NCBI GenBank assembly: GCA_963768055.1
Contig: CAVYGN010000002.1
Span: 1 to 64,000 of the forward strand
Direction: 5' to 3'
Origin: an uncultured Spirochaetota bacterium
Lineage (GTDB): Bacteria; Spirochaetota; Brevinematia; Brevinematales; JAOACQ01
Length of the DNA: 64,000 nucleotides
In this document: one piece after another, positions 10,229 through 29,903 of the stretch
Layout: each line of letters starts with the position of its first letter
How positions within the stretch are numbered: the first letter of the stretch is position 1
Made by a program: the position numbers and the translations under genes
The notes under the pieces: model-generated
What the model was told of the DNA's origin: nothing
The model's database searches: none
What the model saw: the letters and a program-made list of their open reading frames with translations, nothing else

Positions 10229-10426
10229 AGTCGGTGTAATCTGTGAAATCTGCGGAAATATTTTCTTACCCTGCATAGAGTTATATGATTCGGAGGAGGG
10301 GAGATACGAATGCAGCGTAATTCCATACCCTGTATGGAATAACAAAACTTCGAAAAATTTTTACTAGTACCTGACTGGTGGAACAAAACACCGATTTTTT
10401 TGAAAATTCTGTAAATTGACTTCAAT
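10229..10426. repeat. att-like junction 1: degenerate tRNA-Ser 3' end with hairpin and type-A arm
   Basis: CGGAGGAGGGGAGATACGAA at 10291 (17/20 to 29819-29838); the following ~130 bp resembles 14395-14530 and 22820-22909. Confidence 0.85.
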
Positions 10427-10459
10427 ATAATACCGCCCGGCCTGCACTGACCTCCAGAA

Positions 10460-11391
10460 CTAATTGTTAGCTGCCAGAGGTGAGGGTTGTAATATATACC
10501 TGGTAGCGATTCCATGTAAAATTCCCGACTCATCAAACCACAATTTATCCAAGCAAATCGAACGCTCAAACCCGGTGCCGGGAAAATCCTTTTGATGGTA
10601 AAGTAGCCAGTATTCCCCATTTTTATTCTCAATAACACAGCATGAGCCCGGTCCATAAACATTGCTATTTTGAGAAATAATCGGATTTGCTTCATATTTT
10701 TTAAAAGGTCCTGCCGGGTTTGAGAAGTTGCGCAACCTATTGCATAATTCCTGAGATCGGCGTTATTTCCGGAATAAAGCAAATAGTATATATTATTCCG
10801 TTTGAAAATCCAGGGAGCCTCGTTCCTGGGAGAATCCCAGCCTTGATCGAAAGTCAAAAGCCTCTTAGGGGAACCTTTCAATGTAACCGGATTGCTCATC
10901 GGCTGGACATATATTTCAGTAAAATTAGAACTATAATAAAGATAGAAAGAACCGTCTGTATCCTGAAACATCTGTGCGTCCCCGGAGTTTTTTATTAAAA
11001 TTCCCAGATCTTTATATTCACCGTCCGGCGTACTTGAACTGGCCACGCCTATTTTGTAGTTCACGGTATAATAAAGGTAAAATGTTTTATCGGAGTGGCT
11101 ATAAAAGATATCAGGAGCCCAGAAATCTTTCTCGCTCCCCGGGCCGAAGATCCTGTTTCCCTTAGACCAGTTAACAAGGTCTTTAGATGTATAGATATAA
11201 TAACTCACATTATCGCCGGTTCCTGACATATAGTAAGTCCCATCATATAATAAAATGCAGGGATCGGCCAGGTTGAAAAGGACAGGATTTGTATATCTTC
11301 CGGAAATAGCCGCAGAATTTGCACCTTCCGGCTTTGCTGCGCATGAAGATAACACAACAAACAACAATATTATATACATTAAACTTCTCAT
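10460..11391 (-). pseudogene. GH43-family glycoside hydrolase lipoprotein, frameshifted near 10722
   Basis: ADP, WAPD and EAPW motifs; after GCATS the GH43 sequence continues as NPAGPF..GPG..YH in ORF 10460..10735. Confidence 0.8.
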
Positions 11392-11540
11392 CTGTAATTC
11401 TCCTAAAAAATTCTTAGATCAGTTTATTATATCAAAACCTAATAGGGATTTCAATGTCTAGGCTACCTGTAAATATTAAATATTACCAAGCGAGTAAAAA
11501 GGCAAAAAACCACAATTCGAAAGAAAAGTTCTCACTTCTC

Positions 11541-11660
11541 GCCAGTTGCCAGTAATCGACCTAACTCTATATAATTTACTGGCACATAGCTGGCAAAATT
11601 TATCAATTTACCGAGTATAGCTTTACGCAACTTTGCAATCAACTTTACTGGCACCTGGTG
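11541..11660. repeat. Type-A arm repeat (GCCAGTTGCCAGTA...TACTGGCAC..CTGGCAAAA)
   Basis: Matches 14194-14285, 17891-17948 and 29507-29600; no tRNA-end copy follows it. Confidence 0.8.
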
Positions 11661-11922
11661 GAAGTTTTTCATTGAAAATCGATTTTTTTGGTACAAGAAA
11701 ATGAGGATATCAAATAAATAATGTTACTAACTAATTATTATTAATAACTTATTGCAATTATATACCAACTAAGAAATTGGTTTAAAGTGTAGATCAGTTC
11801 CATAGTAAATTTTCCGGAAATTTACAATCGTCCGGTACAATATTCCTATTGCAAATCTGTAAAATTATTTTTATACTATGTAACTCATGTATCGGTTAAA
11901 TATATTTCAAGGAGATATTTTT

Positions 11923-12399
11923 ATGAAAAAATGCTATTTTTATATTATGTTTGTTATGCTCACAATCCCCTCTTTAACTTTTTCGGAGTCTTTGACGGAC
12001 CGTTTGATTGACGCGGCCTGGTTTGGGGAAACCTCTATAATTCAGGAATTAATCAAGGACGGCGCAGACGTCAATGCCAGGAATAATAAAAATGAGACGG
12101 CTTTGATGGCTGCGGCAGCCGGAGGCAGGCTTGACGCAGTTAAAGCTTTAATCAAGGCGGGGGCAGACGTCAAAGCTTTGCATACAGTTGATACGTATAG
12201 AACCGGACATACTGTTTTAATGGATGCCGCGTACGGCGGAAACGCAGGTGTGATTAACGCGTTAATAGAAGCAAAGGTCAATGTCAACGCCAGGAGAACA
12301 GACGGCTGGACGGTTTTGATGGAAGCGGTGGTCAATGGAAACGCTGACGCGGCTAAAGCTTTGATCGAGGCGGGGGCCGATATCAATAAAGAGGAATGA
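11923..12399 (+). CDS. Secreted ankyrin-repeat protein
   Basis: Signal peptide and 3-4 ankyrin repeats (GADVN, TALM/TVLM); ends abruptly at ADINKEE. Confidence 0.9.
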   Translation: MKKCYFYIMFVMLTIPSLTFSESLTDRLIDAAWFGETSIIQELIKDGADVNARNNKNETALMAAAAGGRLDAVKALIKAGADVKALHTVDTYRTGHTVLMDAAYGGNAGVINALIEAKVNVNARRTDGWTVLMEAVVNGNADAAKALIEAGADINKEE

Positions 12400-12489
12400 C
12401 GGCATGATCTTAAGGAAAACATTTAGAACTGGCAAGGTTCATAAGAAAAAATTAACCATTGTGCAATATATTAATTTTTGGAGGATTTT

Positions 12490-14049
12490 ATGCCCGGGTT
12501 TTTAAAGAATAAAATAATAATCGCGGAAATAGCGGCTATTTCATTTTTTATTATTATTAATATGATTATCTGTCTTTATCCTTACCATTACGGATTTTTC
12601 CGTGATGAACTTCTTTATATATCCCTCTCTGACCGCCTGAGCTGGTCTTATCTCGAAGTGCCTCCTATAGCCCCCCTGATCCTGGCCGGAGTCCGGTTTT
12701 TACTGGGAACCACTTACTTCTCCCTGCATATAATACCGGCGTTACTCAGTTCCATCGTCATCATGGTATCGGCTTTCATGGTAAAAAAAATGGGCGGAGG
12801 CATTTACGCGATGATACTCTGCCTTATCTGCGTAACCCTGGCCCCCGGATTTATTGGCGGAGTTGACCATTACGATTACAATACATTCGACAGGCTTTTC
12901 TGGACGCTTTCCATTTATATGGTTTTGCTTTTGCTTGTCTCTGGGGATAAAAAATACTGGCTGTATTTCGGCCTTTTTGCCGGGCTCGGCCTGATGTCAA
13001 AAATCACCATGCTTTACCTGGGTTTTTCGTTATTAATAGCTTTCCTGGCCCTTAAAGACCGGAAATTTCTTTTCGACAAGCGTTTCCTACTTGGCGGCCT
13101 GATCGCAGCGTTTATTTTTCTTCCCTTCATAATCTGGCAGGTTTATTATCATTTCCCGATCATAGATTACTTTAAAGGTTACGCGGGCAAGCTTAATCAA
13201 TCATCTCCTGTTCAATATATTTCGAACCAGATCGGCTCAATGAACCAGTATGCCTTCCCCGTCTGGCTGCTGGGATTAATTTATTTCCTGTTCGATAAGG
13301 AAGGCAAGAAATTCAGGGTCTTCGGGCTTACCTATTTTTTCCTCTGCGCTCTCTTTATTTTGCAAAACGCGAAGCCATACCTTATCAACCCATTTTATAC
13401 GGTGCTTTTCGCGGGGGGCTCTGTTTTCATAACACGGTTTATTGAGGAGTGTAAAATAAATTGGCTCAAACCTGCGGCCGCTGTCTTTACCGCAGTCATT
13501 ACAATATTTATTTTATGGAATGGAGTCAAAACGATACCATACTGCCGACCTGTCCTGACGCCGGAAAATTTTATTAAAATGACAGGCGGCCAAAAGTTTA
13601 CAGGCGATGAAAAGAGTGCCTCAGGATTGCTTCCCTCGGATTTCGCCGATTGTTTCGGGTGGGAGGAATTGACTGAAAATGTCGCCGGAGTATATCAAAA
13701 ATTGAGCGATTCGGATAAAAAGAAAGTTTGTATCCTGACCGTCAATTATGGAGAAGCCGGCGCCCTTCATTTTTACGGTCCGAAATACGGCCTGCCCGAA
13801 CCGGTCTGTTCCCATAATATCTGGTATATCTGGGGGCCCGGCAGTAATACTGGCGATGTGATGATCATTGTAGGCTATCCCAGTAATTTTTATAAGTCTT
13901 TTACTATCTTATTCGACCGAGTGGAAATTGCCAGGAAAACCGGAACAAAATACGCGATGTGGTATGAAAACGAAAGTGTGATTTTTCTTTGCAGGGGCTT
14001 GCATTGGCCTTTAAAGAAATGCTGGAGATATTTCAAGAATTTCAATTAA
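12490..14049 (+). CDS. GT39/ArnT-like membrane glycosyltransferase
   Basis: FFRDELLY, PPIAP and GLGLMSK motifs with multiple TM helices. Confidence 0.85.
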   Translation: MPGFLKNKIIIAEIAAISFFIIINMIICLYPYHYGFFRDELLYISLSDRLSWSYLEVPPIAPLILAGVRFLLGTTYFSLHIIPALLSSIVIMVSAFMVKKMGGGIYAMILCLICVTLAPGFIGGVDHYDYNTFDRLFWTLSIYMVLLLLVSGDKKYWLYFGLFAGLGLMSKITMLYLGFSLLIAFLALKDRKFLFDKRFLLGGLIAAFIFLPFIIWQVYYHFPIIDYFKGYAGKLNQSSPVQYISNQIGSMNQYAFPVWLLGLIYFLFDKEGKKFRVFGLTYFFLCALFILQNAKPYLINPFYTVLFAGGSVFITRFIEECKINWLKPAAAVFTAVITIFILWNGVKTIPYCRPVLTPENFIKMTGGQKFTGDEKSASGLLPSDFADCFGWEELTENVAGVYQKLSDSDKKKVCILTVNYGEAGALHFYGPKYGLPEPVCSHNIWYIWGPGSNTGDVMIIVGYPSNFYKSFTILFDRVEIARKTGTKYAMWYENESVIFLCRGLHWPLKKCWRYFKNFN

Positions 14050-14193
14050 GGGCCCTGGTGCCTGTCCTGGAGTCAGGCACCACGGTCCATTAGATTATCA
14101 TTTATTAATAACAAAATTAGTTTTTGGAACGCCTTAAATAATTTATTGGGTTAATAGTTAGAAAACAACTGTTTTGTCATTTTATCAAACAAT

Positions 14194-14530
14194 GCCAGTT
14201 GCCATATCAATTTACTGGCAAAAATATGTCAGTGTCAGTAAATCACGTAACTCTATATATTTTACTGGCATCTGGTTGGCAAAATTAATCAAATTAGCTA
14301 TTTTTTAGGATAAGCAGACTAGACTGGCTAGAATTAAAATCAGTATTTATCAGTATTCATCTGCGGATCGTAATTCCTTACCCTGTATATAATTCGGAGG
14401 AGGAGGGATCGGAATATCGCGTAATTCCCTATCCCGTATAGAATAACAAGACTTAGAAATTTTTTTACTGGCACCTGGCTGGCGGAACAAAACACCGATT
14501 TTTTTGAAAATTCGGATAATTGACTTCAAT
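14194..14530. repeat. att-like junction 2 (type-A arm, tRNA 3' copy at 14395, type-A arm)
   Basis: CGGAGGAGGAGGGAT exact 15-mer; ACTGGCA repeats on both sides. Confidence 0.88.
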
Positions 14531-14548
14531 GTTCTGAAGCATTATAAT
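14520..14548 (+). promoter_or_regulatory. Sigma70-type promoter, probably for a leaderless mRNA
   Basis: TTGACT-17 bp-TATAAT with ATG 6 nt downstream and no RBS. Confidence 0.65.
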
Positions 14549-14554
14549 ATTAAT

Positions 14555-14737
14555 ATGAAAGAGATACCTTTATCAAAAACAAACCCCTACCTTCAAAATA
14601 TCGACCAATATGAAAGATTGATCATTAATAATGTTATTACTTCCTCCGCGATTGAAATTGGAACAGTAAGTGCCAATATTATCAAAACATTGAATGAAAA
14701 GAACTCACCTAGGGTTATTTGCCTCCCCGATTATTAA
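14555..14737 (+). CDS. Putative Fic antitoxin (VbhA/FicA-like)
   Basis: 60 aa containing TSSAIEI, resembling the (S/T)xxxE(G/N) inhibitory motif; convergent with and overlapping fic. Confidence 0.5.
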   Translation: MKEIPLSKTNPYLQNIDQYERLIINNVITSSAIEIGTVSANIIKTLNEKNSPRVICLPDY

Positions 14738-15368
14738 CAGTTAAATCAAACACTTCTTTAAAAATTGATTCCATAAGCAAATAGTTTCTATCAAGCCCCA
14801 GATTTACAGCTTTGAAATATTCCTTCTTTTTTTCTTTTTTAATAAAACTAAAGTCCAATGGAGGATAACCTGCCTGAAGTGCCATCAGGGTAGATAATAA
14901 CCTGGCCACCCTTCCGTTCCCTTCCCTGAAAGGATGAATAAGTATCAATTCCACATGAGTTATAGAAATAGCGTTTATTACATTGCCGATATCATTGAAA
15001 TTACATGGAGTAAATTTGAATAGATACTCATTCTCAAATGCATCCATTAAATTTGGGATTTGGGCAGCTGCCGCGAAATTAAAATCCCCTTTGCTTAGAT
15101 TTACCTTCCTGAATTTTCCCGCCCAGGGGTAAATATTACCCAGCCATATTTTATGAATTTTAAAAATGTCACTTGTTTTAAAGCGATGGTTAGCTCCATA
15201 TGTATTAATAATTTCTTCTTCGGCTTGTTTTAAAGCCAGGGCTTCAATTCTATCCATTTCAGTTTTCTTTTTAATACCCAGCAGGTTTTTTAATACGCGA
15301 TTCCTTGAACCAGGCTCAAACTGCGCTTCAACTAATCCGGTTGTATCATATTTATTGTTCTGTTTCAA
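14715..15368 (-). CDS. Fic-domain AMP transferase
   Basis: Canonical HPFREGNGRVAR; VLKNLLGI and YPWAGKFR of class I Fic proteins. Confidence 0.93.
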   Translation of the reverse strand: MKQNNKYDTTGLVEAQFEPGSRNRVLKNLLGIKKKTEMDRIEALALKQAEEEIINTYGANHRFKTSDIFKIHKIWLGNIYPWAGKFRKVNLSKGDFNFAAAAQIPNLMDAFENEYLFKFTPCNFNDIGNVINAISITHVELILIHPFREGNGRVARLLSTLMALQAGYPPLDFSFIKKEKKKEYFKAVNLGLDRNYLLMESIFKEVFDLTVNNRGGK

Positions 15369-17841
15369 TTGAATCTCCTAATGATCCATTTACCTCATAT
15401 CCTATTGCTCTATAGCCTCTCAGCCTTTTGTCAAACATCCTTTTCAATACCGGCTCATTGATATCCGCGTAGTCATAAACTATCAATTCTTTTTTAGAAT
15501 GATGGTTTCTGTGCAGTCTTCCTACATATTGCTCCAGAGTCCCTCTCCAAGATACGGGCATTGCCAGAAAAAGAGTATCAAGCCTGGCATTATCAAAACC
15601 CTCTCCAATATATTTCCCTGTAGAAATAATAATTCTAGATTCATCATCGCTTAAATTCATAAGCATTTTCATTTTTTCTTCCAGCTTCTTTTTACCCATC
15701 CCGGCACGCAGTACGATTATATTTTTAACAATAGGGGTCAACTCTTTTTCGAAATAATCAACATGCTCTTTTCTCTCAGTAAGAAGGAGGGGAATTCTTT
15801 TATTTCCCAGTGCAGCAATTACATCATTAAGGATAATTTGGTTTCTATTCTGATCCTGAATCAGTTCCGAATAAATATCCTGAATGCTTTTATCTTTTTC
15901 ATTACTAAAAAATCCTGAAGAGGAACAAAAATCAGTGTATTTTGGTATAACAGTATGCTTTAAAACCTTTTGATCAGCTATATCCTTGTTTTGTATTTTA
16001 AATCGAATAGGCCCGCATTGCATAAATAAAATAGGCTGATGCCCGTCCTTTCGTATAGGCGTAGCTGTAAGGCCCAGCACATACTTTGCTCTAGCAGTCT
16101 TCATAACCTGTTCAAAGCTGAATGCTGAAATATGATGGCATTCATCAACTATGACAAGACCGTATTCGCTTACGATATCTTTGATTTTACCCTTACGGTT
16201 CAAAGTTTGAAGCATAGCTATATCGATAATTTTTGTCGATTTATCTTTACTGCCTCCGATCTGACCGATAGACTTATCGGGCAGTTCCAGAAACATTAAC
16301 AACCTTTGTTTCCATTGCTCCATTAATTGTTTTCGATGTACCAATATGAGGGTATTTACTTTTTTCTCTGCAATCAGGGCGGCTCCAACCACTGTTTTAC
16401 CGAATGCTGTTCCCGCGGATAAGATCCCTATTTCATAATCCAGTATTGAATTTAAAGCCTTTTCCTGGATTTGTCGGAGTTTCCCTTTGAAACTTGCTTC
16501 AATCGGTAAACCAGAGCATCTTTTATCCTCAACATTCAATTCTATATGGTTAGTTTTTAATAATTCTTTCAAGTCATCCAGGCAACCCCTGGGGATACCG
16601 ATATGGTTTGGATATTCTTCAGCTGAACTGATTATCCTTGGTTTACCGAACGTATTAAGACGCATTGCCTGGGTCCTGTAAAATTCAGGGTTTTGAAACG
16701 CTGCTAATTTACGGATCCTGTTAATCAGGAGGGAAGGAAGATTTCTTATATCAATAAAAATCATATTGGACAATACAATATCCAATTTGACCGGGAGATT
16801 ATCGCATTTCAAAGGTTCATTTAAAGCCGGAGAAGGGATTATATTCCACGGTTCCAGTTCTTCATCTTCAGTATGAGTTTGAATGCCAAAAGAAAATGCT
16901 TGCCGATAATTGTCTGAAACTATTTTGTTGACATTTGATTGTGACATTTTAACTATTCGGGAAAGGAAATCCCATTGATCCAGGAAAGGTTCTGCAGCTT
17001 CATTTATGAAAATACTGTTCCCTTCATTTCTTGGTTTTTGCTGAAGTGGCAGAGCTATCAGATTTCCAAAACCACCTTTTGGTATAGTGTCCTGGTATGG
17101 AAAGAACCGGTCATAAGATGATAAACTGATCTGGTAACGGTTATCCATTGTTCTTGTAAGAATAATAAAACCTAATTTTCTAGCTTGAAATGCAGGAATT
17201 TTTGTTTCAAAAAAAATCCAGATATGCCCTCCCTTGCCGGAACGGGAGCGCTCCAGATAAGCAGGGATATTCATATCCTTACAGGTATTCAAATATGCAA
17301 GAGCATCATCCATCCAATTAAGGTGGGCTTCTTTGTCGTCAAAATCGCAGGCAAGAAAGAAGCAATTTTCATCCCGAATCATCGGATAAACACCGATGGT
17401 TATTTTTCCAGACAAATGATCGGATATTGTTTGGTCAGCGATAGCAGCATATTTTTTATTTTCACATTCTCCGCATTTTATCATTGGTTTTTTGCAGAAT
17501 TTTCTATCCCATTCATTAGTACAAACCGGAGAATATCCCGATTTTCCCTTTTGTGACTCCCAACGGGCAGGATAAACATCTTCCCGTCCTTTAAAAAGAC
17601 TTCTGAATAACTTAATCTTTATTGTATTTGGAGAATTATGATTTACAACTTCTTTTAAGCCCTTTAAATTTAAATTCGTATTTTTTTCATCATAAGAATC
17701 ATTCGATACATGTAAATTATCAAGTGCTTGTTTTCCATTGACTGGTAACAAATTCTTAAGTCGATTGTTTTCTATATATAATCTTTTATTTTCTTGTTTC
17801 AAGGCTAGAATCTGATTCTTTAGATCTTCTAATTCCATCAT
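15352..17841 (-). CDS. AEP (TOTE-type) primase-like domain fused to an SF2 (ResIII-like) helicase
   Basis: N-terminal FKGREDVY, CxN/CxxC, DFD, ERSRSGKGGHIW and GNLIALP; C-terminal TAFGKT, DECHH, GLTAT and QYVGR. Confidence 0.85.
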   Translation of the reverse strand: MMELEDLKNQILALKQENKRLYIENNRLKNLLPVNGKQALDNLHVSNDSYDEKNTNLNLKGLKEVVNHNSPNTIKIKLFRSLFKGREDVYPARWESQKGKSGYSPVCTNEWDRKFCKKPMIKCGECENKKYAAIADQTISDHLSGKITIGVYPMIRDENCFFLACDFDDKEAHLNWMDDALAYLNTCKDMNIPAYLERSRSGKGGHIWIFFETKIPAFQARKLGFIILTRTMDNRYQISLSSYDRFFPYQDTIPKGGFGNLIALPLQQKPRNEGNSIFINEAAEPFLDQWDFLSRIVKMSQSNVNKIVSDNYRQAFSFGIQTHTEDEELEPWNIIPSPALNEPLKCDNLPVKLDIVLSNMIFIDIRNLPSLLINRIRKLAAFQNPEFYRTQAMRLNTFGKPRIISSAEEYPNHIGIPRGCLDDLKELLKTNHIELNVEDKRCSGLPIEASFKGKLRQIQEKALNSILDYEIGILSAGTAFGKTVVGAALIAEKKVNTLILVHRKQLMEQWKQRLLMFLELPDKSIGQIGGSKDKSTKIIDIAMLQTLNRKGKIKDIVSEYGLVIVDECHHISAFSFEQVMKTARAKYVLGLTATPIRKDGHQPILFMQCGPIRFKIQNKDIADQKVLKHTVIPKYTDFCSSSGFFSNEKDKSIQDIYSELIQDQNRNQIILNDVIAALGNKRIPLLLTERKEHVDYFEKELTPIVKNIIVLRAGMGKKKLEEKMKMLMNLSDDESRIIISTGKYIGEGFDNARLDTLFLAMPVSWRGTLEQYVGRLHRNHHSKKELIVYDYADINEPVLKRMFDKRLRGYRAIGYEVNGSLGDSIETEQ

Positions 17842-17890
17842 TAATAATCCCAATATAATATTGAATAAAATCAATCAAATCAATAAGATT

Positions 17891-18290
17891 GCCAGTTGCC
17901 AGTAAATCACCTATTTCATTATAATCTACTGGCACCTGACTGGCAAAAAATCGTTTTATTGGTTAGATTGGCTGGATTGGCTGAAATTTTGAAAAAGCGG
18001 CTTTTTCACCAAAATGAGCCAAACCAACCAAAAGAAATTTTTACAAAAATATTGATATGTTATTAACAGGAATAGAGATATGGAGATTAAGGAATTTCAG
18101 GGAAAAATCCATCTGCGAAATCTGCGGATCGTAAATCCTTATCCTGTATATAATTCGGAGGAGGAGGGATTCAGAAAACCCTAACCCTTCTGCTAATTCT
18201 TTATTCCACAATCAGATAGAAATTCATTATTTTACGATTTAACCAAAAATCCGTAATCAAACCGTAATCAAATCATAATCGCATAATTAT
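17891..18290. repeat. att-like junction 3 (type-A arm, tRNA 3' copy at 18156, type-B CGTAATCA arm)
   Basis: 17-bp exact match CGGAGGAGGAGGGATTC; CGTAATCA at 18252 and 18263, CATAATC at 18274. Confidence 0.88.
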
Positions 18291-18378
18291 CTTATTACAG
18301 GTATTGAAAATATACAACCATTATCATGATTTTAAGTATTTGAAATGATTATTTTGTAAAAATATTTTAAAAACCCCC

Positions 18379-18444: not shown

Positions 18445-20705
<2,261 letters not shown>

Positions 20706-21573: not shown

Positions 21574-22167
21574 ATGGCTATAAACGACACGGAAAGAAAA
21601 AACGTGATAATTCTAGGTGCTGGCGGTCAAATTGCAAGTCATGCGATTGAAATGTTGGTAAAATTGGATAATATTAATCTGACCCTTTTTTTGCGAAATA
21701 AAAGCAGATTAAAGAAAAACAATATTTCCAAATGCCGTATCATCGAAGGCGACGTTCTTGATATCAATCAGCTCAAGGAGGCTATTAACGGACAGGATAT
21801 CGTATATGCAAATCTTTCAGGCGATTTGGAGGCGATGGCAAAAAACATCGTGAAAGCTATGGAAGATAAAGGAGTCAAAAAACTCATCTTCATAAGTTCT
21901 ATAGGTATTTATGATGTTCCTTTGCGACCAGTTTTAAAGCCTTACCGGAATGCTACTGATGTAATAGAATCATCTGATCTTGATTACACCATCCTGAGGC
22001 CGACCTGGTTTACAGGTGCTGATGAAGTGGATTATGAAATTACAGAAAAAGGCGAGCCGGAAAAAGGTTCAGAGATCTCTCAAAAAAGCCTGGCGACATT
22101 TATAGTTAAAATTATCGAATCTCCTGAAAATTATAAACGTAAAAACCTTGGCATAAGCAAACCATAG
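21574..22167 (+). CDS. NAD(P)-binding short-chain oxidoreductase
   Basis: ILGAGGQIA and LDYTILRPTW motifs. Confidence 0.88.
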   Translation: MAINDTERKNVIILGAGGQIASHAIEMLVKLDNINLTLFLRNKSRLKKNNISKCRIIEGDVLDINQLKEAINGQDIVYANLSGDLEAMAKNIVKAMEDKGVKKLIFISSIGIYDVPLRPVLKPYRNATDVIESSDLDYTILRPTWFTGADEVDYEITEKGEPEKGSEISQKSLATFIVKIIESPENYKRKNLGISKP

Positions 22168-22190
22168 ACTACTATATACGGAGGATACTT

Positions 22191-22727
22191 ATGAGCAGGA
22201 AAATTTTAGTGCTTTCAGCGAGTCCGAGAAAAGGAGGAAACTCAGATTTGCTATGTGATCAATTTATGATGGGAACAAAAGATGGCGGACATGAAGCTGA
22301 AAAGATATTTTTAAAGGATAAAAATATAAATTACTGCACAGGTTGTGGCAACTGTTTCAACGGCAAGAGTTGTTCCCAGAAAGATGATATGGGCAGTATA
22401 CTGGATAAAATGATTTCAGCCGATGCAATTGTGATGGCAACTCCTGTATATTTTTACACTATGAACGCTCAGATGAAAACTTTAATAGACAGAACCTGTT
22501 CCCGTTATACTGAAATTTCGAATAAGGATTTTTATTTTATTGTAACTGCCGCTGACAACAGCAAGCATGCTATGGAAAGGGCACTTGAAGGATTCAGAGC
22601 ATTTACCTCCTGCCTGAGCGGGGCACAGGAAAAGGGAATCGTTTATGGAACCGGCGCATGGAACATTGGGGAGATAAAAGGAAAGCTTGCGATGAAAGAA
22701 GCATATGAAATGGGGAAGCAGGTTTAA
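22191..22727 (+). CDS. Iron-sulfur flavoprotein / flavodoxin family
   Basis: SPRKGGNS, CTGCGNC...C and TPVYF motifs. Confidence 0.9.
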   Translation: MSRKILVLSASPRKGGNSDLLCDQFMMGTKDGGHEAEKIFLKDKNINYCTGCGNCFNGKSCSQKDDMGSILDKMISADAIVMATPVYFYTMNAQMKTLIDRTCSRYTEISNKDFYFIVTAADNSKHAMERALEGFRAFTSCLSGAQEKGIVYGTGAWNIGEIKGKLAMKEAYEMGKQV

Positions 22728-22742
22728 TTTAGATATAAGAAT

Positions 22743-22909
22743 CGAAATCAAATCGTAATCAGTTGATACTTGAAATACTTAATTGTTTTATATTAAAGGA
22801 GTTAGATTAGAATATAATCCGGAGGAGGAGGGATACGAATGCAGCGTTATTCCATACCCTGTATGGAATAACAAAACTTCGAAAAATTTTTACTGGCACC
22901 TGACTGGCA
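22743..22909. repeat. att-like junction 4 (type-B arm, tRNA 3' copy at 22820, hairpin, type-A arm)
   Basis: CGAAATCA and CGTAATCA at 22743 and 22754; 19/20 match to the tRNA end; TTATTCCATAC-CCT-GTATGGAATAA; TACTGGCACCTGACTGGCA at 22891. Confidence 0.88.
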
Positions 22910-23243
22910 TACCCTTCAGGCACTAAAGGAAGTTTTTTAGTAAAAAACAAGCTCTTCTTGCTTTGAAAAATGTAGATCTATGCCCAGGAATTTCGGGCTT
23001 GATATTAGGCAATTGTCGTCTCTGTCTGATTTTCTTGATATGCTTTTCAAACAGTAACTCGTTTACAGATTCTAAACGTGGCGGTTATAGCTGAAATAAT
23101 AAGTCAAAAAAAGACACAATTGTTCTGGCATAAAAAGAGATAGTAAAATAAAAAACTTAAGGAGACTCTTTCACAATATGGGCGGGCAGTTGGTATAATG
23201 AAATTATTGAGTTTAAGTACAGTTTTATTTATAATTTCGATAT

Positions 23244-24653
23244 ATGGGAAAAAATGAAAATGTTTCATATTTTTATAATGGGTTCATCAGCTACAGGCAT
23301 AAAGAGCGGGATCGGAAATGGGCCAAAACGCTTTTTGAAGCGCTGGAAAATTTTCGTTCTCCTAAGGCGCTGATAAAAACAGGAACCTCTCCAAGGATTA
23401 GCAGGATTTTTCGCGATGAAAACGAACTGCCGACATCACCCAACCTTAGCGATGATATCAATCGCGCGCTGGAGGCATCCAGGACGCTTATCGTGGTCTG
23501 TTCGAAAGACACTCCATTTTCCCTCTGGGTCTGCAGGGAAATTGAGGCATTTATAGAAATGGGCAGAGGAAATCGGATTTTTGCCATTGTGATAGATGAT
23601 GATCCTGACATGTCGCTGCCTGAGCCTTTGAAAATATTTTTCGGTAAAGACGGGGAAAAAGAGGAATATCACGGCCATATGATACGGTTGAAGACCGGAA
23701 AACTTAATTACCCGGCTTTTATTCCCGTAATAGCCGAAGCTTTAGGAGTAAAATCTGATCTATTGTCGGAAGCGATAATAAAAACTGCCGTTAGGAAGCG
23801 CAAAATCACTGCGGCCATCATGACATCAGCAATTGCCGTTATCGCAGTCATCTTTTATCTCATATATGATTACATAGGATTAAAAACTTTGTATTACCGA
23901 TCTTTTGCAGATCGATATTCCCTTCCTGCCGGCATCGGCATGATCGACTTTAAAAAAAATAATCAAGCAGGTTCGATGTACCGTTTTGAGATCAGGATGG
24001 GGAAATTGTTCAGGGTAGTTATGGTAGATAGCCAAGGGGAAAAAAAAGATGACGACTGGGGAATTTCCGAACGAGATATATCCTACACTTCCGGTAAAAT
24101 ACAGATTACACTTAAAAATTCAAGAGGGGTTGTCCTGCAGATCAGGGACTATACCGGAGACAGGTTACAGGTAGAGTTGACATCCGGGAACGGATATGAG
24201 ATATTCCGCGGCTGGGAAAGCCCTTCTTCCCATTTGTGTTCCTTTACGCCCAGAAATAAACTGATTCCCTCCTATATAAATATAGAATATGATGAAAATG
24301 GTTTTATCCGCAAGGAGATGTACTTCCATGATCAGTGGAATACTCCGGCTTTTGACGAATGTTCGAACTCGGGAAAATTGTTTGAATATAACCGGAACGG
24401 CCTGGTAACAGAGTGGCGGGGGCTCGACAGCAGCGGAGATTTGATGCAGACAGGGCCTAAAGCCGGCGGAGAAAAGCTCTCTTATGGCCCTGACGGCAGG
24501 GAACTTTCCAGGGCTTTTATCAACGGCAGGGGAGAGATTGTGAACGGGCCTGGAAAGCCATACGCGCAAGTTCGATTTATTTATGAAGTAAACGGTTCAA
24601 TATTGACAAATTACTTTGATTCTAATAATGATCCCCTGCCCGGAAATCAGTAA
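23244..24653 (+). CDS. TIR domain, single TM, extracytoplasmic repeat-derived domain
   Basis: FISYRH, IFRDENEL, LIVVCS and WVCREI; RKRK followed by a hydrophobic helix; YD-like repeats at the C-terminus. Confidence 0.88.
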   Translation: MGKNENVSYFYNGFISYRHKERDRKWAKTLFEALENFRSPKALIKTGTSPRISRIFRDENELPTSPNLSDDINRALEASRTLIVVCSKDTPFSLWVCREIEAFIEMGRGNRIFAIVIDDDPDMSLPEPLKIFFGKDGEKEEYHGHMIRLKTGKLNYPAFIPVIAEALGVKSDLLSEAIIKTAVRKRKITAAIMTSAIAVIAVIFYLIYDYIGLKTLYYRSFADRYSLPAGIGMIDFKKNNQAGSMYRFEIRMGKLFRVVMVDSQGEKKDDDWGISERDISYTSGKIQITLKNSRGVVLQIRDYTGDRLQVELTSGNGYEIFRGWESPSSHLCSFTPRNKLIPSYINIEYDENGFIRKEMYFHDQWNTPAFDECSNSGKLFEYNRNGLVTEWRGLDSSGDLMQTGPKAGGEKLSYGPDGRELSRAFINGRGEIVNGPGKPYAQVRFIYEVNGSILTNYFDSNNDPLPGNQ

Positions 24654-24664
24654 AGGAGTGACTT

Positions 24665-27493
24665 ATGCCCGATATAACAACATTTCAATATGACGTGTTT
24701 ATAACCTGCAGAAATATACCTCAGGACAGGGCCTGGGCGGCATGGCTCCTCAGATCCATCCTGAAATACCGGGTATCAAAAGCACTCCGGAAAAGAGGGA
24801 TACCGTCACGGGTGAGTAAAATTTACTTGGACGAAGATGAACTGGCAATCACCCCGAATCTTTCTGAAAAAGCGATTAAAGCCTTGGAAACTTCAGGCTG
24901 CCTCATAGTTATATGTTCAACTCAAACGAAACAATCGCTATGGATAGAAATGGAAATAGATCTTTTTCGTAAACTCGGAAGGGGAAACCGGATACTTGTC
25001 CTCTTGGTTGAAGGTGAACCAGGCGAATCTTTTCCGAAAGGGTTGCTTGAAATAACTGAAACAGAGGAACTTCAGGACGGAAGCCTGAGAAAAACGGTAA
25101 AAAAGGTTGAACCCCTGGCCGCCGATGTGCGCCCGAGGAAGGATGAAACGCGGGGAAAATTGAAAATATTGGCAATTCTACGAATATTGGCCGGCATACT
25201 GGGATGCACATTTGACGATCTTTTTCAGAGGGAAAAACGAAGGCGGAAACGCCGGACCATAACGGCTATATCGATATCAGCGTCTTTATTTATCGCTATA
25301 TGCGCAATAACATTCAGCGTATGGCTTTCCAGCTTGCCGCAGGTCGAATATTACAACAGTTTTGTTTACAGATGGGGCAAACCCGCAGGTATCGGGGAAG
25401 TGGATAAGGCATCTGCGGCCAGAAGGCTGCAAACATACCGCTTTGAGACGAAAAACGGGAGACTGCTGAGAGTTGTGCTTCAAAACGGTAGCGGAATGCC
25501 GATGCCGGATAACTCCGGGGTCAGCGAATGGAGGATGGATTACACAACCGGCTATACGAACGGGACATTTAAACAAATCGAGTGTTTTAACATTAATGGG
25601 ATGGTTGTTATGAAGCGGGATTATTCGGACGATTATAAAACTATCGAGCTTAAAGACGCTTTTGACAGGCCTTATGCCAAACCGTCAGAAGGGATTGATT
25701 TACTCCTCCTGACCGAGCTTATCATACAAGACAATAATAAAACGAAAAAACCGATGATCAACCGGATAAAAACCGAATTGGACACTGACGGATTTGTCGT
25801 AAACGAAATTTACCAGAGGGACGTGTTCGGTACGCCTGAGGCGGACGAAAACGGCAGCTACGGTAAAATCTTCACTCTGGACAGACAGGGGCTGGTGCTT
25901 GAATACCACAGCATCGGCAGAGGCGGCAAATCAAGCCCGATGAAAGAAGGCGTAAGCGTGGAAAAAAGGCAGTACAACGATTTGGGAAATGAGGTTGATA
26001 AAGTTTTTACAGGCCCCGAAGGCCGGCCGTTTATGCCGATCTCGCTCGGTTATGCTGAAAGGACCATGAAGTATGATAATGCGGGAAATGAGATCGAATC
26101 CGCCTACTTTGATGAAAAAGGGAAGGCGATTATTAACAGGAGCGGATATTCGAAGGCTGCAATGAGCTATGATAATCGTGGAAACCAGATCGGGATCGCC
26201 TTCTTTGATAAAGATGGAAACCCTGCCATGTCTAAAGATTTTGGCTATTCAATGATTATTTCAAAGTGGGATGAAAGAGGAAACCAGATTGAGATTGACT
26301 TTTTCGGAACTGACAGGAAACCTTGCGTTTGCAATGAAGGATACTCTAAAGTGAAATTCAGGTATGACGGAAGAGGGAACCAGATTGGAAATTCTTATCT
26401 GGACACCGACGGAAAACCTGTACTCTCAAAGGGCGGGTATGCAAAATTAATTTTGAAGTATGACAACCGGGGCAACCTGATCGAAACTATCTGCCTGGGC
26501 GTCGACGGAAAACCTGTCAACTCGAAGGACGGGTACGCGATTATTAAATCAAAGTTTGATAAACAGGGCAATAAGATTGAGGAATCGCTATTCGGAGCCG
26601 AAGGGAAACCCGTCCTTAACAAGTCGGGATATTTTAAAACGTTGGTAAAATATGACGAAAGGGGAAACCAGATCGAGAAGGTCTGCATTGGGACAAACGG
26701 GAAACCCGCACTGAATATTGATGGCTACTCTAAGGTGACTGAGAAGTACGATGAACGCGGGAATCAGACCGAATGGGCATACTTCGGCACTGACGGGAAA
26801 CCTATCCTTGAAAATACTTACGGCATCGCAAGGAATATTTCGGCGTATGACGATAGGGGCAACATGACCGGATGGGCCTGTTATGATACTGGAGGTAAAC
26901 CCATGCTTGATAAAGACGGCATAGCGATGATAGCCATGAAATATGACGAACTGGGAAATGTTATAGACATTGAATATTTTGACACCGACGGAAAACCTGT
27001 CAAGTGTAACGCTGGTTACGCGAAGTGGACGGAGAAGTATGACGCAAGAGGAAACCGTATCGAGTTTGACTGCTTCGGGACGGATGGGAAACCTGTACTT
27101 GACAGGGACGGCGCAGCAAAAATCACGATGAGGTATAACAAACGTAATTTAATGATCGAAAACGCCTTTTACGGCACGGACGGAAAACTTATCATTATAA
27201 AAAACGGGTATGCCAGATCAGAAGTTAAGTATGACGAACGCGGGAATATGATAGAGAATGACTACTTCGGCGTGGACGGGAAACCCATCCTATGCAGTGA
27301 CGGGATCGCAAAATGGACTGAGAGTTTCGACGAAAGATGGAATGCGGTTGAAATAGCCTATTTCGGGATCGATGGGAAGCCTGTTGCCTGTAAATTAGGA
27401 TTTGCGAAATGGGAAGGCAAGTATGATGAACGGGGAAAGGTCATTGATAATGAATATTTTGATAAAAACGGGAATATAATATCACTAAATTAA
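24665..27493 (+). CDS. TIR domain, single TM, about 16 tandem 32-aa YD-like repeats
   Basis: YDVFI, IYLDEDEL and WIEMEI; KRRRKRR followed by TM; repeat consensus KYDERGNxIExxxFGxDGKPxxxxxGYAK. Confidence 0.9.
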   Translation: MPDITTFQYDVFITCRNIPQDRAWAAWLLRSILKYRVSKALRKRGIPSRVSKIYLDEDELAITPNLSEKAIKALETSGCLIVICSTQTKQSLWIEMEIDLFRKLGRGNRILVLLVEGEPGESFPKGLLEITETEELQDGSLRKTVKKVEPLAADVRPRKDETRGKLKILAILRILAGILGCTFDDLFQREKRRRKRRTITAISISASLFIAICAITFSVWLSSLPQVEYYNSFVYRWGKPAGIGEVDKASAARRLQTYRFETKNGRLLRVVLQNGSGMPMPDNSGVSEWRMDYTTGYTNGTFKQIECFNINGMVVMKRDYSDDYKTIELKDAFDRPYAKPSEGIDLLLLTELIIQDNNKTKKPMINRIKTELDTDGFVVNEIYQRDVFGTPEADENGSYGKIFTLDRQGLVLEYHSIGRGGKSSPMKEGVSVEKRQYNDLGNEVDKVFTGPEGRPFMPISLGYAERTMKYDNAGNEIESAYFDEKGKAIINRSGYSKAAMSYDNRGNQIGIAFFDKDGNPAMSKDFGYSMIISKWDERGNQIEIDFFGTDRKPCVCNEGYSKVKFRYDGRGNQIGNSYLDTDGKPVLSKGGYAKLILKYDNRGNLIETICLGVDGKPVNSKDGYAIIKSKFDKQGNKIEESLFGAEGKPVLNKSGYFKTLVKYDERGNQIEKVCIGTNGKPALNIDGYSKVTEKYDERGNQTEWAYFGTDGKPILENTYGIARNISAYDDRGNMTGWACYDTGGKPMLDKDGIAMIAMKYDELGNVIDIEYFDTDGKPVKCNAGYAKWTEKYDARGNRIEFDCFGTDGKPVLDRDGAAKITMRYNKRNLMIENAFYGTDGKLIIIKNGYARSEVKYDERGNMIENDYFGVDGKPILCSDGIAKWTESFDERWNAVEIAYFGIDGKPVACKLGFAKWEGKYDERGKVIDNEYFDKNGNIISLN
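25973..27490 (+). repeat. Coding tandem repeat, about 96-bp (32-aa) unit
   Basis: About 16 units starting YNDLGN, YDNAGN, YDNRGN, WDERGN...; diverged at the DNA level. Confidence 0.9.
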
Positions 27494-27508
27494 TATTTTT
27501 TATTGAAA

Positions 27509-29308
27509 TCAATTCAACTTTTCATCAGCGGGAATAATATTGTATATTTCCTGTTTTCCGAATCCCTTTGCGAGATCTATAATCCCAACATATTCATATT
27601 TGTATTTTTCCGGATAGTCCAGCATAAGTAAAGTAGTAAACTGGTCTGTAGCATAGATGCTGCCTGGTACGGTTACAGGTTCAATCCTCGCAGCCCTGTT
27701 TACATGACTCCCGTAAGCGTTCATTTTACCGGTAATCGGGTCTCTTGCTACAAATATCGGCCCGGTGTGCAAGGCAATCCGTATGTTAATATTTTCAGGC
27801 AGGTTGAATTCAGACCACCTGGTTTCCCTAAAAATATTCCTTAAGATGACTGCGTATTCGGCGGCCTCCAAAGGGCTGGAAAATACTGAGAATATTGCGT
27901 CTCCCCAGGTGTTGACAATATAAGGTCTGATCCTGAAATTATTTATGCGGACGGCAATCTTATTTAAAAGCACATGCATGAAATAGGGCATTTGTTCTTC
28001 GTTCAATTTTGAAAAACCCTTAATATCAGAGAACAAGATGCTTTTTATAAATCTCTTTAAACCGAAAGGCGGCGCCGATTTATCATTGCCCGTGATTGAT
28101 ATAGGCTTATTTTGATAAGTTTTGTCTCTAGAAATGTACTTTTTCGGGTCAATTATAATGATGTTATTACGACCTTTGTATTTTTTAAAAAATTCTTCAG
28201 TCCCTCCTGTTTTAATATTTTTTTTACTTGAATGAAATACCCCCATCATATAATATTCAGCCTGTAGGCTTTTAGAACGCACTTGTGCCTGGCCGAGGAT
28301 TATCCTGTTCAGGAAAGAGAATAATTCGTCGCTGCCCAGGTATCTCTCCTCGGTAATGTAGTTGACGCGGGTTTTCTCTAATATTTTATTAAAACGGTCA
28401 ACCCAGTTTTGGCCTGCAAACCCCACGCTTTTTTCGATAAAATCATCCTTTTGAAAAGGAAGATAAACATTTACTTCGGCCCCTCGTTCCAGCATGGCCT
28501 CCACGAAGAGAATATCCGACCCGCATGCAAGAGATGAATAACCGATGCCAGCGTCAATTTCCTGCAGGCGGTGCTTGATATCTTTTTTTATTTCCACGGA
28601 TATCGTTTCAGGAAACCTTGGAACAACTCGATCGGGATGATCAATCATGTGGCCGGAGAACACAACTATCGGTTTGGGTTTCAATATATTCAAGATATCT
28701 GCCGGAATGCTGATAATGTTTTTTAAAAATAATATTTGATGGTAGGAACTGTTGACGTTGCCGGGAGATTCTGACGAAGTTTTTACGGCTTCTTCGTAGT
28801 AATGAAACGCATTTACTGGGTCGTTTATGATCAGGTAAGCCTCGCCGAGGGTGGCTAAGGACCAGTAATCTTTACAGTCATTTTTCATGATGATATCGAT
28901 AACTGATTGGGCAATACCGACGGCTTCTGCCTTATCCCCAACAGCAAAAGACATAGTCGCGGCGTTGATACCGTTATAATAGTCCTTTTCCTTTCTGAAA
29001 CAATCCCGGTAAATCTCCCTGGATTTTTGCCCGTATTCAGGATTATTGGTTTTTTTGAAAAGGTCTTTATAAATTCTGCCCAGGATTCCTGACGTTTCGG
29101 GGTCTTTATTAACCTTATATATAGATTCCATGTGATCTTTGGCTTTGATCGGTTCACCGATCTTCGCAAGTACCAGGCCTTTCAGCTGTAATAGCCTTAT
29201 ATTGTCCGGATTATTAACAAGTTTTGAATTTAAAAGATTATAAGCTTCAATAAAGCGGCCTTTTTTTATTGTGATCTCAACTTCTGTTATTTCCTGTTCT
29301 ATTTCCAT
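27509..29308 (-). CDS. TPR (TPR-S/MAP3K TRAF-binding-like), SLOG-like and class III nucleotide cyclase protein
   Basis: GILGRIYKD, YYNGINAAT and DYWSLATLGEA; FSGHMID..RFP and SLACGSDILF; ILFSDIKGFS, TWGDA, RIALHTGP and VNRAARIEP. Confidence 0.85.
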   Translation of the reverse strand: MEIEQEITEVEITIKKGRFIEAYNLLNSKLVNNPDNIRLLQLKGLVLAKIGEPIKAKDHMESIYKVNKDPETSGILGRIYKDLFKKTNNPEYGQKSREIYRDCFRKEKDYYNGINAATMSFAVGDKAEAVGIAQSVIDIIMKNDCKDYWSLATLGEAYLIINDPVNAFHYYEEAVKTSSESPGNVNSSYHQILFLKNIISIPADILNILKPKPIVVFSGHMIDHPDRVVPRFPETISVEIKKDIKHRLQEIDAGIGYSSLACGSDILFVEAMLERGAEVNVYLPFQKDDFIEKSVGFAGQNWVDRFNKILEKTRVNYITEERYLGSDELFSFLNRIILGQAQVRSKSLQAEYYMMGVFHSSKKNIKTGGTEEFFKKYKGRNNIIIIDPKKYISRDKTYQNKPISITGNDKSAPPFGLKRFIKSILFSDIKGFSKLNEEQMPYFMHVLLNKIAVRINNFRIRPYIVNTWGDAIFSVFSSPLEAAEYAVILRNIFRETRWSEFNLPENINIRIALHTGPIFVARDPITGKMNAYGSHVNRAARIEPVTVPGSIYATDQFTTLLMLDYPEKYKYEYVGIIDLAKGFGKQEIYNIIPADEKLN

Positions 29309-29506
29309 CGCATCCCCGTAACTAATTAATAACAAAAAGCGAATGAAGCAAACTAAAGAATATCAATCGATTATATCCCTGAGCAAGTTACCGCTTTGAT
29401 CATAAATTCCATGTAAAACCACCATATTTTCCTCTATTAATCTAATAATGAATCGAAAAAAACACAAGCCTACTATTAGTCAATATCATAATTTTATTAC
29501 TATTAT

Positions 29507-29818
29507 GCCAGTGCCATTAATCGACCTAACTTTATATTGAGCATGCGGTTCAAGACCTATGGTGCCCTCCGGGCACCTTCGGCACCTGACTGGCAAAATT
29601 TATCGATTTACCGATTTTTGGTTAGGTTGGTCATATTTTCCGGAATCATCAATGGATTAAATTAACAAATCAATATTTTCTGTTTAAGAATTTAAATAAG
29701 GCTTATATTATTAATATGTATGGAGATATGATAATATTGGATTCTCAGAATTTAGTCTATCCGTGTAATCTATGAAATCTGTGGTTTCTATTTCGTTGTG
29801 GGGTAAGGAATTATGATT
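29507..29818. repeat. Type-A cassette end adjoining the intact tRNA
   Basis: GCCAGTGCCA...GGCACCTGACTGGCAAAATT and GTGTAATCTATGAAATCTG, matching 10234-10252. Confidence 0.8.
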
Positions 29819-29903
29819 CGGAGGAGGAGGGATTCGAACCCCCGATACCTTACGGTATAACAGTTTTCAAGACTGCCTCCTTCGACCGCTCGGACACTCC
29901 TCC
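29819..29903 (-). tRNA. tRNA-Ser(TGA)
   Basis: GGAGGAG/CTCCTCC acceptor stem, anticodon loop CTTGAAA, long variable arm, GGTTCGAATC T-loop, G discriminator; CCA not encoded. Confidence 0.96.

Follow-up and report, generated by a model that had tools for sequence, protein, structure and literature searches.

Probable accretion of integrase-less modules at the 3' end of a tRNA-Ser(UGA) gene in an uncultured Brevinematales bacterium

The stretch of DNA considered here (the window) spans positions 1 to 64,000 of contig CAVYGN010000002.1, from an uncultured Spirochaetota bacterium of the order Brevinematales, and holds, on one side of its tRNA-Ser gene, what appears to be a tandem array of gene modules devoid of any integrase gene. 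tRNA detection with ARAGORN and Rfam (RF00005) predicts a sole tRNA gene in the window, tRNA-Ser with anticodon UGA (tga), on the minus strand at 29818-29904 (Rfam 54.9 bits); its 3' end serves as attachment core and anchors the array. Read on the plus strand, the 20-mer corresponding to this 3' end has five matches, all on the plus strand, at 29819 (no mismatch), 22820 (one mismatch), 18156 (two), 14395 (two) and 10291 (three), while 100 dinucleotide-preserving shuffles return none; the four further direct copies noticed in an earlier sequence-only reading of this DNA are thus confirmed at the same coordinates, and start-to-start distances of 4104, 3761, 4664 and 6999 bp bear out the block sizes of about 4.1, 3.8, 4.7 and 7.0 kb proposed there. 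The conserved unit is a 22-nt identity block, TAT[GA]AT[TC] followed by the 15-mer CGGAGGAGGAGGGAT, which covers the final 15 nt of the tRNA and 7 nt of its trailer. The left part of this block (TAT[GA]AT[TC]CGGAGG) is found at exactly five sites in the 64-kb window, which are the five core copies. Mismatches at positions 16-20 of the 20-mer fall in what is part of the right arm and do not reflect decay of the core; among the five cores of the window, only the 10291 copy is degenerate in the identity block itself. An Rfam scan of the 10-30 kb region with E up to 10 recovers the real tRNA only and no partial tRNAs at the internal cores. The idea that the inner right arm could be a decayed tRNA 3' half was dropped, as it rested on a weak alignment.

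The cores are embedded in longer junctions, whose anatomy was studied by five-way alignment, direct reading, comparison of each arm segment with the whole window (BLAST, word size 7) and nhmmer profiles of the arms. In its full form (L arm, core, R arm), a junction is a composite site of ~450 bp. The L arm, to the left of the core on the plus strand, measures 200-310 bp and comprises, in this order, two TGCCAGT heptads, a doublet of ACTGGCA heptads with 11-bp phasing, a ~65-nt imperfect palindrome and two boxes, ATCTG-GAAATCTG and then CGTAATTCC...CCTGTAT. The R arm, to the right of the core, is shorter (70-115 bp); here the CGTAATTCC...CCTGTAT box recurs as a direct repeat, together with a further ACTGGCA doublet and a tail rich in T. 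The motifs named in the sequence-only reading are all located, be it the 11-bp phase of ACTGGCA, the ATCTG[CT]GAAATCTG motif (10239 and 18111, with a one-base variant at 29768) or a short hairpin (10321-10344). The heptad ACTGGCA/TGCCAGT occurs 22 times in 64 kb, and 15 of these 22 copies lie inside 1,611 nt of junction sequence, that is, 2.5% of the window (binomial 1.5e-19, for junction zones picked post hoc). Arm sequence is confined to the array: neither BLAST nor the nhmmer profiles detect any in the 64-kb window outside about 10225-29858. The distal part of the L arm also contains face-to-face sigma-70-like promoter hexamers (TTGCCA, 17-18 nt, TATAAT) partly built from the heptads, at 11546-11575 and 17896-17925 on the plus strand and 17946-17918 on the minus strand; three of the four L arms that have this distal part adjoin, just upstream, a minus-strand cargo gene, and the hexamers face the first cargo gene.

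Core copy 1 (29812-29838, on the plus strand like the other four) is made of 7 nt of trailer and the last 20 nt of the live tRNA. It adjoins an L arm (29506-29811, plus strand; nhmmer L-arm profile E 7.9e-61) with TGCCAGT repeats, an ACTGGCA doublet (its first heptad split by an insertion of ~43 nt that includes a hairpin) and the motifs TTGGTTAG and ATCTATGAAATCTG; the tRNA side of this junction is without an R arm, as expected of an attL-type end. Core copy 2 (22813-22839, one mismatch in the 20-mer) has an R arm on its right and no ACTGGCA-type L arm on its left, and core copy 3 (18149-18175) has an L arm on its left only. The 15-mer of copy 3 is intact and its T-loop part is altered, a variant also present at the homologous junction of the related contig L004 described below. 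Its L arm (17890-18148, plus strand; nhmmer E 7.8e-73), which terminates module 3, shows both TGCCAGT heptads, the ACTGGCA doublet, the ~65-nt palindrome as a self-inverted match at 17968-18031, ATCTGCGAAATCTG and a CGTAA(A/T)TCC...CCTGTAT box. Core copy 4 (14388-14414) lies within a full L-core-R junction (14193-14530) that is attP-like. Core copy 5 (10284-10310, three mismatches in the 20-mer) belongs to the junction 10225-10310, with a ~60-nt inner L arm on its left (nhmmer L profile positions 213-292, E 3.4e-12) and an R arm on its right. With arm sequence on both sides, the 10291 copy marks an internal junction, and the array does not end there. One more junction, at 11541-11690 (plus strand), is coreless, a distal L arm being fused to a distal R arm with deletion of the inner arms and core (nhmmer L E 9.2e-16, R E 6e-10). 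It divides the first of the four blocks delineated in the sequence-only reading into two modules; the delimitation of all four blocks by cores stands, and the unity of the first does not.

Each module consists of an R arm, its cargo and an L arm, with cargo genes on both strands, and the array is probably composed of at least six such non-autonomous modules of 1.2-7 kb each (modules 1 to 5 are given on the plus strand; cargo families are Pfam assignments unless stated otherwise). Module 1 (10311-11540, R arm 10311-10426) contains a minus-strand GH43 glycoside hydrolase gene with its start at 11391. Compared with an intact 310-aa copy on the related contig L002 (3688-4620), this gene (10455-11391) has a 1-nt deletion, and the resulting frameshift opens a 398-aa frame, so that the listed open reading frame (ORF; 10195-11391) continues into junction sequence; the Pfam profile is covered over positions 1-216 of 288 in the window and 1-287 in L002. 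The window gene is either a pseudogene or the product of a sequencing error. Module 2 (11691-14387) encodes an ankyrin-repeat protein (11887-12399) and a PMT_2-family glycosyltransferase (12478-14049), both on the plus strand, and terminates with the L arm 14193-14387. Module 3 (14415-17889, R arm 14415-14530), which has a homologue in L004, contains a plus-strand 60-aa ORF (14555-14737), followed on the minus strand by genes for a Fic-domain protein (14715-15368; Pfam Fic 67 bits, PADLOC candidate family PDC-S04 251 bits) and an AEP primase-polymerase fused to an SF2 (superfamily 2) helicase (15352-17874; Pfam AEP-TOTE 330 bits, PADLOC PrimPol 298 bits).

Module 4 (18176-22812) carries a MerR regulator gene (18445-18837) and five redox enzyme genes, all on the plus strand: two aldo/keto reductases, a CMD-family protein, an NAD(P)H-binding protein and an FMN reductase. 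It has a predicted promoter of its own, a promoter-like region with a palindrome that is conserved in L002, and CGTAATCA repeats near both ends (18252, 18263 and 22754). Module 5 (22840-29505, R arm 22840-22909) encodes, on the plus strand, a TIR protein (23244-24653) and a TIR-repeat protein (24665-27493) and, on the minus strand, a protein with TPR-S and nucleotide cyclase domains (27509-29335); Pfam and weak PADLOC matches make a role of this cargo in defence likely. In its C-terminal half, the second TIR protein has about 13-15 copies of a 96-nt (32-aa) tandem repeat (window 26069-27474), and Pfam recognizes in this protein the TIR domain only. On the other side of the 10291 junction lies a partial module 0 (9397-10224, minus strand), with an S24-peptidase-like protein gene (9690-10181; Pfam, NCBIfam) and a 117-aa ORF that is cut by the end of an IS21-family insertion sequence (IS); this ORF looks PIN-like by eye and has no family match.

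A genome collection was scanned with a degenerate 24-nt pattern of the heptad doublet, which returned six loci (L001-L006). L002 (with L003 on the same contig) and L004 belong to metagenome-assembled genomes (MAGs) labelled uncultured Brevinematales, and L001 to a MAG labelled Smithella (contig JBEKJX010000326.1, 3.3 kb). L005 and L006 were treated as chance matches and set aside as relatives, having no BLAST similarity to the window and a weak nhmmer match at the pattern site only. The full junction 14180-14530 has no BLASTN match (distant mode) in phage or plasmid collections. L001, L002 and L004 display the same junction architecture as the window. On L001, one complete L-core-R junction is located between defence-like genes; as this MAG belongs to a different phylum from the Brevinematales MAGs, its junction reflects either spread across phyla or a mis-binned contig.

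In window orientation, L002 begins with pentapeptide and copper-resistance genes, a coreless junction and a MerR module (9531-4901) that is 78-87% identical to module 4 and has gained and lost genes; it continues with a degenerate core and R arm, the intact GH43 module (95.4% identical) and a second coreless junction, then two unknown genes and a stray FMN-reductase 3' fragment, a degenerate core with its R arm, and the contig end. The coreless junctions of L002 are more compact than that of the window, and the two copies are nearly identical to each other; beyond 9713, BLAST and nhmmer find no junction copies in the examined L002 sequence. L004 presents the start of the PrimPol-helicase gene (80.6% identical to the window), an L arm, a core and a variant R arm, followed by GNAT acetyltransferase and RelB antitoxin genes, a probable degenerate junction, a BrnA-like antitoxin gene, a core and the same variant R arm. 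These modules, with their antitoxin-type genes (RelB beside GNAT; BrnA-like), are only ~0.7-1.1 kb long. In the variant R arm (2342-2194 and 328-210, minus strand), ACTGA[CT]A heptads replace ACTGGCA beside the same core, and the two inner R-arm segments are 93% identical to each other, a subtype which may mean that recombinases of different specificity use the same tRNA-Ser end. Two small insertions, which are independent of each other, were also seen: ~43 nt at window 29538-29580, in the L arm beside the tRNA, and ~27 nt at about 4760-4733 (minus strand) of L002. Both are sited in the first heptad of an ACTGGCA doublet, and each has a short GC-rich hairpin and contains TCAAGAC; they may stem from a miniature insertion element or mark a secondary target for insertion.

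The relatives do not carry the array as one invariant block. Three modules are common to the window and its relatives in a different order, and the neighbours of these modules differ on five of the five sides that can be compared. Divergence is also unequal within the same pair of genomes: the window and L002 agree at 94.5% of third-codon positions in GH43, against 80.2, 66.2 and 67.0% in MerR, an aldo/keto reductase and the FMN reductase, respectively. The GH43 and MerR modules were therefore not inherited together, and at least one of them was exchanged separately; as judged from the sequences, the modules have independent histories. In the 14 junctions of the window and its relatives, the core is an exact 15-mer in five, has one or two changes in three, is badly degenerate in three and is missing in three.

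The search for a recombinase covered 56 window ORFs with Pfam (27 ORFs of 1-34 kb and 29 ORFs of 34-64 kb), and no integrase, recombinase or transposase domain is present in any of them apart from those of the IS21 element. In addition, 51 intergenic stop-to-stop frames (at least 35 aa, 9.3-30 kb, E up to 0.1) contain neither an integrase remnant nor remnants of other recombination or transfer genes, in agreement with the earlier statement that no block encodes an integrase. Relaxase, coupling protein and type IV secretion system (T4SS) domains are likewise lacking inside the array (Pfam on the 27 ORFs of 1-34 kb and the 51 intergenic frames). No integrase is found in the 34 kb that flank the array on the tRNA side or in the ~10 kb at its opposite end, nor is any integrase domain among the 33 ORFs (23 + 10) of the related contigs, and none of the ten fully bounded modules (five in the window, three in L002 and two in L004) harbors a recombinase gene. 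Of the outcomes that the sequence-only reading had named as refuting it, the first two (one invariant block in relatives; end motifs found genome-wide without tRNA-end copies) are decided in its favor by these results.

The explanation favored here, with reasonable though not strong confidence, is that of an accretion array, in which non-autonomous modules flanked by attachment (att) sites were integrated in tandem at the 3' end of tRNA-Ser(UGA) by a recombinase acting in trans. The pattern of arms, with a half site at the tRNA and attP-like sites inside the array, is the one predicted for tandem integration of circular L-core-R units. In such a mechanism, circular units carrying an L-core-R site would recombine with the tRNA end, and modules would be inserted one after another by site-specific recombination, each event leaving a copy of the 22-nt identity block between neighbouring modules, with attP-like internal junctions and a half site at the tRNA. 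As no enzyme is encoded in the array, the recombinase would have to act in trans; it could come from a chromosomal gene located elsewhere or from a full-size element with att sites of this family. Modules might then excise and re-insert, or travel with a neighbour, independently of the others, and junctions would decay by deletion between directly repeated heptad doublets and by conversion between copies, fixing modules in place. In anatomy, the junctions agree with the att site of an arm-binding tyrosine integrase, namely a short tRNA-end core between arms of 100-300 bp with repeated arm-type sites; the long arms with their phased repeats would favor an enzyme of this type, and their phased heptads and conserved boxes would fit such an integrase working together with accessory proteins. 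A serine recombinase, as described in parts of a study of Dehalococcoides (PMC3146451), can also leave 20-bp repeats of the end of a small-RNA gene.

Stacks of att-flanked elements without integrase are already known, and the closest known concept is that of cis-mobilizable elements (CIMEs) formed by tandem accretion. In the sections of PMC7563491 that deal with them, CIMEs are described as lacking integrase, relaxase and transfer genes and as lying, flanked by att sites, in tandem at the 3' end of a target gene; the same sections report classical CIMEs of 1.2-13 kb and gene-free microCIMEs of 130-220 bp in S. salivarius, and cite 215 CIMEs at tRNA-Lys in S. agalactiae. To the extent of this description, the array resembles them in size range, att flanks, tandem stacking and absence of integrase: its modules have att-like repeats on both sides (one boundary being coreless), and no integrase, relaxase, coupling protein or T4SS domain is found within it. 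It differs in that no integrative and conjugative element (ICE) or integrative and mobilizable element (IME) is seen in tandem with the modules or known for this att family, in its greater length (at least six units without an autonomous partner), in showing no sign of an origin by deletion from an ICE or IME, and in its att family, lineage and target (tRNA-Ser). The same account (PMC7563491, in part) places the most decayed CIMEs farthest from the target gene, as may be the case here; the age gradient that the sequence-only reading had deduced from its most distal copy is weak and is not established, because only one core is degenerate and the order of modules varies between genomes.

Other systems share part of this organization. 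In Dehalococcoides, tandem islands downstream of ssrA each have a 20-bp direct repeat of its 3' end and conserved sequence beside the repeat; the portion of PMC3146451 concerned lists 16 islands with a conserved integration module including a CcrB-like serine recombinase, and 15 without an integration module, which its authors suggest are cis-mobilizable. The likeness, as far as that portion goes, lies in tandem islands beside a small-RNA gene that are bounded by repeats of its 3' end; by comparison, no recombinase is seen here, and the heptad arms would rather point to an arm-binding tyrosine integrase. The tycheposon islands of Prochlorococcus are situated by tRNA genes including tRNA-Ser(TGA), and successive integrations leave partial tRNA copies between them; according to the preprint, tycheposons come with a tyrosine recombinase of their own, and integrase fragments persist in degenerate islands (bioRxiv 10.1101/2020.12.28.424599). 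By description, they are similar in being tRNA-side islands with defence and adaptation cargo, unlike the present array in which neither an integrase nor fragments of one are found. Acinetobacter plasmid dif modules and Xer-dependent integrative elements are presented in parts of PMC6449649 and PMC13141974 as modules without a recombinase of their own, likely served by a host enzyme. dif modules, on this partial account, are similarly bounded by recombination sites and shuffled between replicons, but they use short XerC/XerD sites on plasmids and involve no tRNA (no search for Xer-type sites was made here).

Several observations weigh against the accretion reading. Neither the 64-kb window nor the 26.5 kb of the three related contigs contains a cognate integrase. 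Module 4 is flanked by cores without having ACTGGCA arms in the window; the conserved block ends announced in the sequence-only reading hold for the ACTGGCA-armed blocks and fail for this MerR/redox block. As the heptads overlap sigma-70-like hexamers, their sequence suggests that they could be operators, as well as or instead of arm sites. On L002 (634-520, minus strand), an unrelated module of two genes ends, immediately ahead of a degenerate core, in a ~100-nt 3' fragment of an FMN-reductase gene like the one that closes the MerR module. This fragment resembles the trace of an earlier, overwritten MerR-type module, and its presence beside a junction shows that illegitimate rearrangement also occurs. 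Six of the 14 junctions are coreless or badly degenerate, including four out of four on L002, and much of the visible array may therefore be fossil. Finally, arms and cargo are not strictly linked, unlike what simple core-to-core exchange predicts. The inner R arms at 10291 and 22820 are 98% identical and their distal R arms 56%; conversely, the distal R arm at 10291 and its L002 homologue are 93% identical and the inner R arms of the same pair 49%. Since identity switches there, the breakpoints, as read from these alignments, are at the heptad doublet and not at the core. Inner arms of one genome resemble each other more than they resemble those of another genome; besides 10291 and 22820, examples are the two L004 copies (93%) and the L-inner boxes at 14359 and 18120 (94%). 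Coreless junctions have the appearance of deletions that run from the L to the R doublet, the two forming 17-nt direct repeats 200-270 bp apart; with the re-assorted arms, they indicate at the sequence level that junction copies recombine or convert among themselves.

The degraded junctions are among the arguments for a fossil island, in which once-autonomous, integrase-bearing elements would have lost their recombination genes and no site-specific movement would take place now, the differences between genomes being due to homologous recombination and deletion between repeated junctions. This is a possible if rather unlikely account. It would explain the cores lost or degraded in six junctions, the mosaic junction segments with breakpoints in their most conserved stretch, and the frameshift of one cargo gene (GH43). 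It also has parallels, within what the sources cover, in the Prochlorococcus islands, where successive integration displaces older elements and leaves scattered partial tRNAs and fragmented integrases (bioRxiv 10.1101/2020.12.28.424599), and in the definition of CIMEs as deletion derivatives (PMC7563491). Against this, ten complete modules and 51 intergenic frames have yielded no integrase remnant, full junctions occur even on modules of ~0.7-1.1 kb, most modules retain both arms, and the full 15-mer has been kept by four internal cores in the window and by one in L004, outside any tRNA. The 94.5% third-codon identity of a GH43 module whose neighbours differ also speaks against an island that no longer moves.

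The breakpoints raise a second alternative, an improbable one, in which the ACTGGCA doublet itself, and not the tRNA-like core, would be the point of exchange. Cargo units would then run from doublet to doublet, the ~270-bp segment formed by the inner arms and core would be a separate, optional unit, and the coreless junction would be the basic site, used by an unknown recombinase or by short-homology recombination. The re-assortment of R-arm variants exactly at the doublet is what this alternative predicts, and the high identity between the GH43 regions of the window and L002 begins and stops in doublets; the two near-identical compact coreless junctions of L002 and the two independent small insertions within a doublet are also in its favor. 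It fails, however, to explain why the array meets the tRNA exactly at the core and why the identity block is kept at eight of the 14 junctions, and the homology of the PrimPol module with L004 extends ~90 nt past the doublet. Coreless junctions are more simply accounted for by deletion between the 17-nt direct repeats, which lie ~200-270 bp from each other, and direct heptads at 11-bp spacing do not, to our knowledge, have the shape of any known crossover site. A last alternative, that the ~450-bp junction is a mobile or repeated intergenic element with a tRNA fragment, akin to a miniature inverted-repeat transposable element, amid ordinary chromosomal genes, would suit a non-coding repeat with internal inverted repeats, but is hardly tenable as all copies have one orientation and lie within 19.6 kb ending exactly at the tRNA with none in the other 44 kb, the tRNA junction is an L half only, cut at the core, and the genes in between vary in order and neighbours from one genome to the next.

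The accretion reading leaves a more ambitious version of itself to be considered, namely that of a tRNA-anchored cassette platform, in which one recombinase encoded elsewhere would capture, excise and reshuffle integrase-less cassettes of 0.7-7 kb, by way of a ~450-bp composite site formed about the tRNA-Ser end, and thereby fill the role of an integron by other means. This proposal is tentative and on balance doubtful. So, to the same degree, is its corollary that the cassettes (defence, toxin-antitoxin-type, stress) would form a standing class of mobile DNA and not decay products of ICEs or IMEs, and no greater likelihood is given to the suggestion that arm subtypes built on ACTGGCA, ACTGA[CT]A (L004) and CGTAATCA (MerR module) share one core. 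The likeness to integrons is functional only: small units without a recombinase, which one enzyme would serve, with toxin-antitoxin-type or defence cargo and a shuffled order. The integron-like working that the sequence-only reading had supposed is not supported, for the window shows no resident integrase (no intI beside the array), no attI, no common promoter and no set of promoterless, co-oriented cassettes, the cargo lying on both strands. Whereas attC hairpins measure 57-141 nt, the junctions here are ~450-bp composites with a tRNA fragment and do not look like attC-type sites; an Rfam scan of the window at gathering thresholds, with no attC model in it, reports the tRNA only. An attC-like interpretation of the junction was set aside, as the boxes flanking the core are repeated in direct rather than inverted orientation and the short hairpin of the R arm is not conserved in relatives.

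Two further candidates were discarded. An autonomous tRNA-integrating island, prophage or ICE would have an integrase gene next to an att end, and none is found in the window. Tn7-like elements carry tnsA/B/C-type genes and terminal inverted repeats with a 5-bp duplication, without a long tRNA-end duplication; a Tn7-like or CRISPR-associated transposon at the tRNA was set aside as no tnsA/B/C-type domains are found and the boundaries bear the 22-nt identity block. At keyword level, the open-access literature gave no description of integron-like, tRNA-anchored cassette arrays or of such a system in Brevinematales, which does not prove that none exists.

The distal boundary of the array is lost, hidden by the IS21-family insertion sequence (6864-9396, minus strand), which encodes istA (7729-9270) and istB (6964-7710) and was identified by Pfam, NCBIfam and its inverted repeats. 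This element has nested terminal repeats. On its left, it adjoins an HU/IHF-family gene (6655-6873) that is truncated at its 5' end by ~22 codons (it matches profile positions 23-89 of 90). The flanks of the IS (6655-6873 and 9397-9665) are not a single gene split in two and show no target duplication; a deletion or rearrangement linked to the IS is therefore likely. On the other side, to the right of the tRNA, lie a gene for a 157-aa protein of unknown function and housekeeping genes including gyrB, purA, pnp, murJ and dapA, with those for an NAD/FAD-binding subunit (30414-31175) and an MsrAB fusion (31372-32520) flanking the locus. Elsewhere in the window, two OmpA-domain genes (137-1084 and 3877-4539) share stretches of 72-79% identity within the genes and upstream of them (291-397 versus 4031-4137; 1109-1204 versus 5172-5267), a pattern suggestive of local duplication around a histidine-kinase/LuxR pair. 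The segment 51007-53157 contains a full-length DUF1246+DUF1297 gene (51007-52134), which we take to be PurP-like, and a split second copy made of a DUF1297 ORF (52131-52601) and a DUF1246 ORF (52753-53157), either a broken paralogue or a truly split gene.

The mobile elements of this lineage are essentially undescribed, and the array represents a known kind of structure in a little-studied group of bacteria; what sets it apart is a run of at least six units without an autonomous partner, the very small antitoxin-gene units of L004 and an elaborate junction whose segments re-assort. The long conserved junction offers a clean system in which to ask how arm-type sites steer a recombinase to non-autonomous DNA, and its profile is a ready probe for such arrays, and for the missing integrase, in metagenomes; tools for island detection that require an integrase would overlook every one of these modules. 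The cassette-platform proposal would be of high interest if excision were shown by reads or by an assay. Should the modules still be mobile, the CIME and accretion idea would reach beyond Firmicutes and Dehalococcoides, and the array would let its host gather and exchange genes of the defence, stress and toxin-antitoxin type in a compact manner, at a single safe chromosomal site and in packets that need not each pay for a recombinase.

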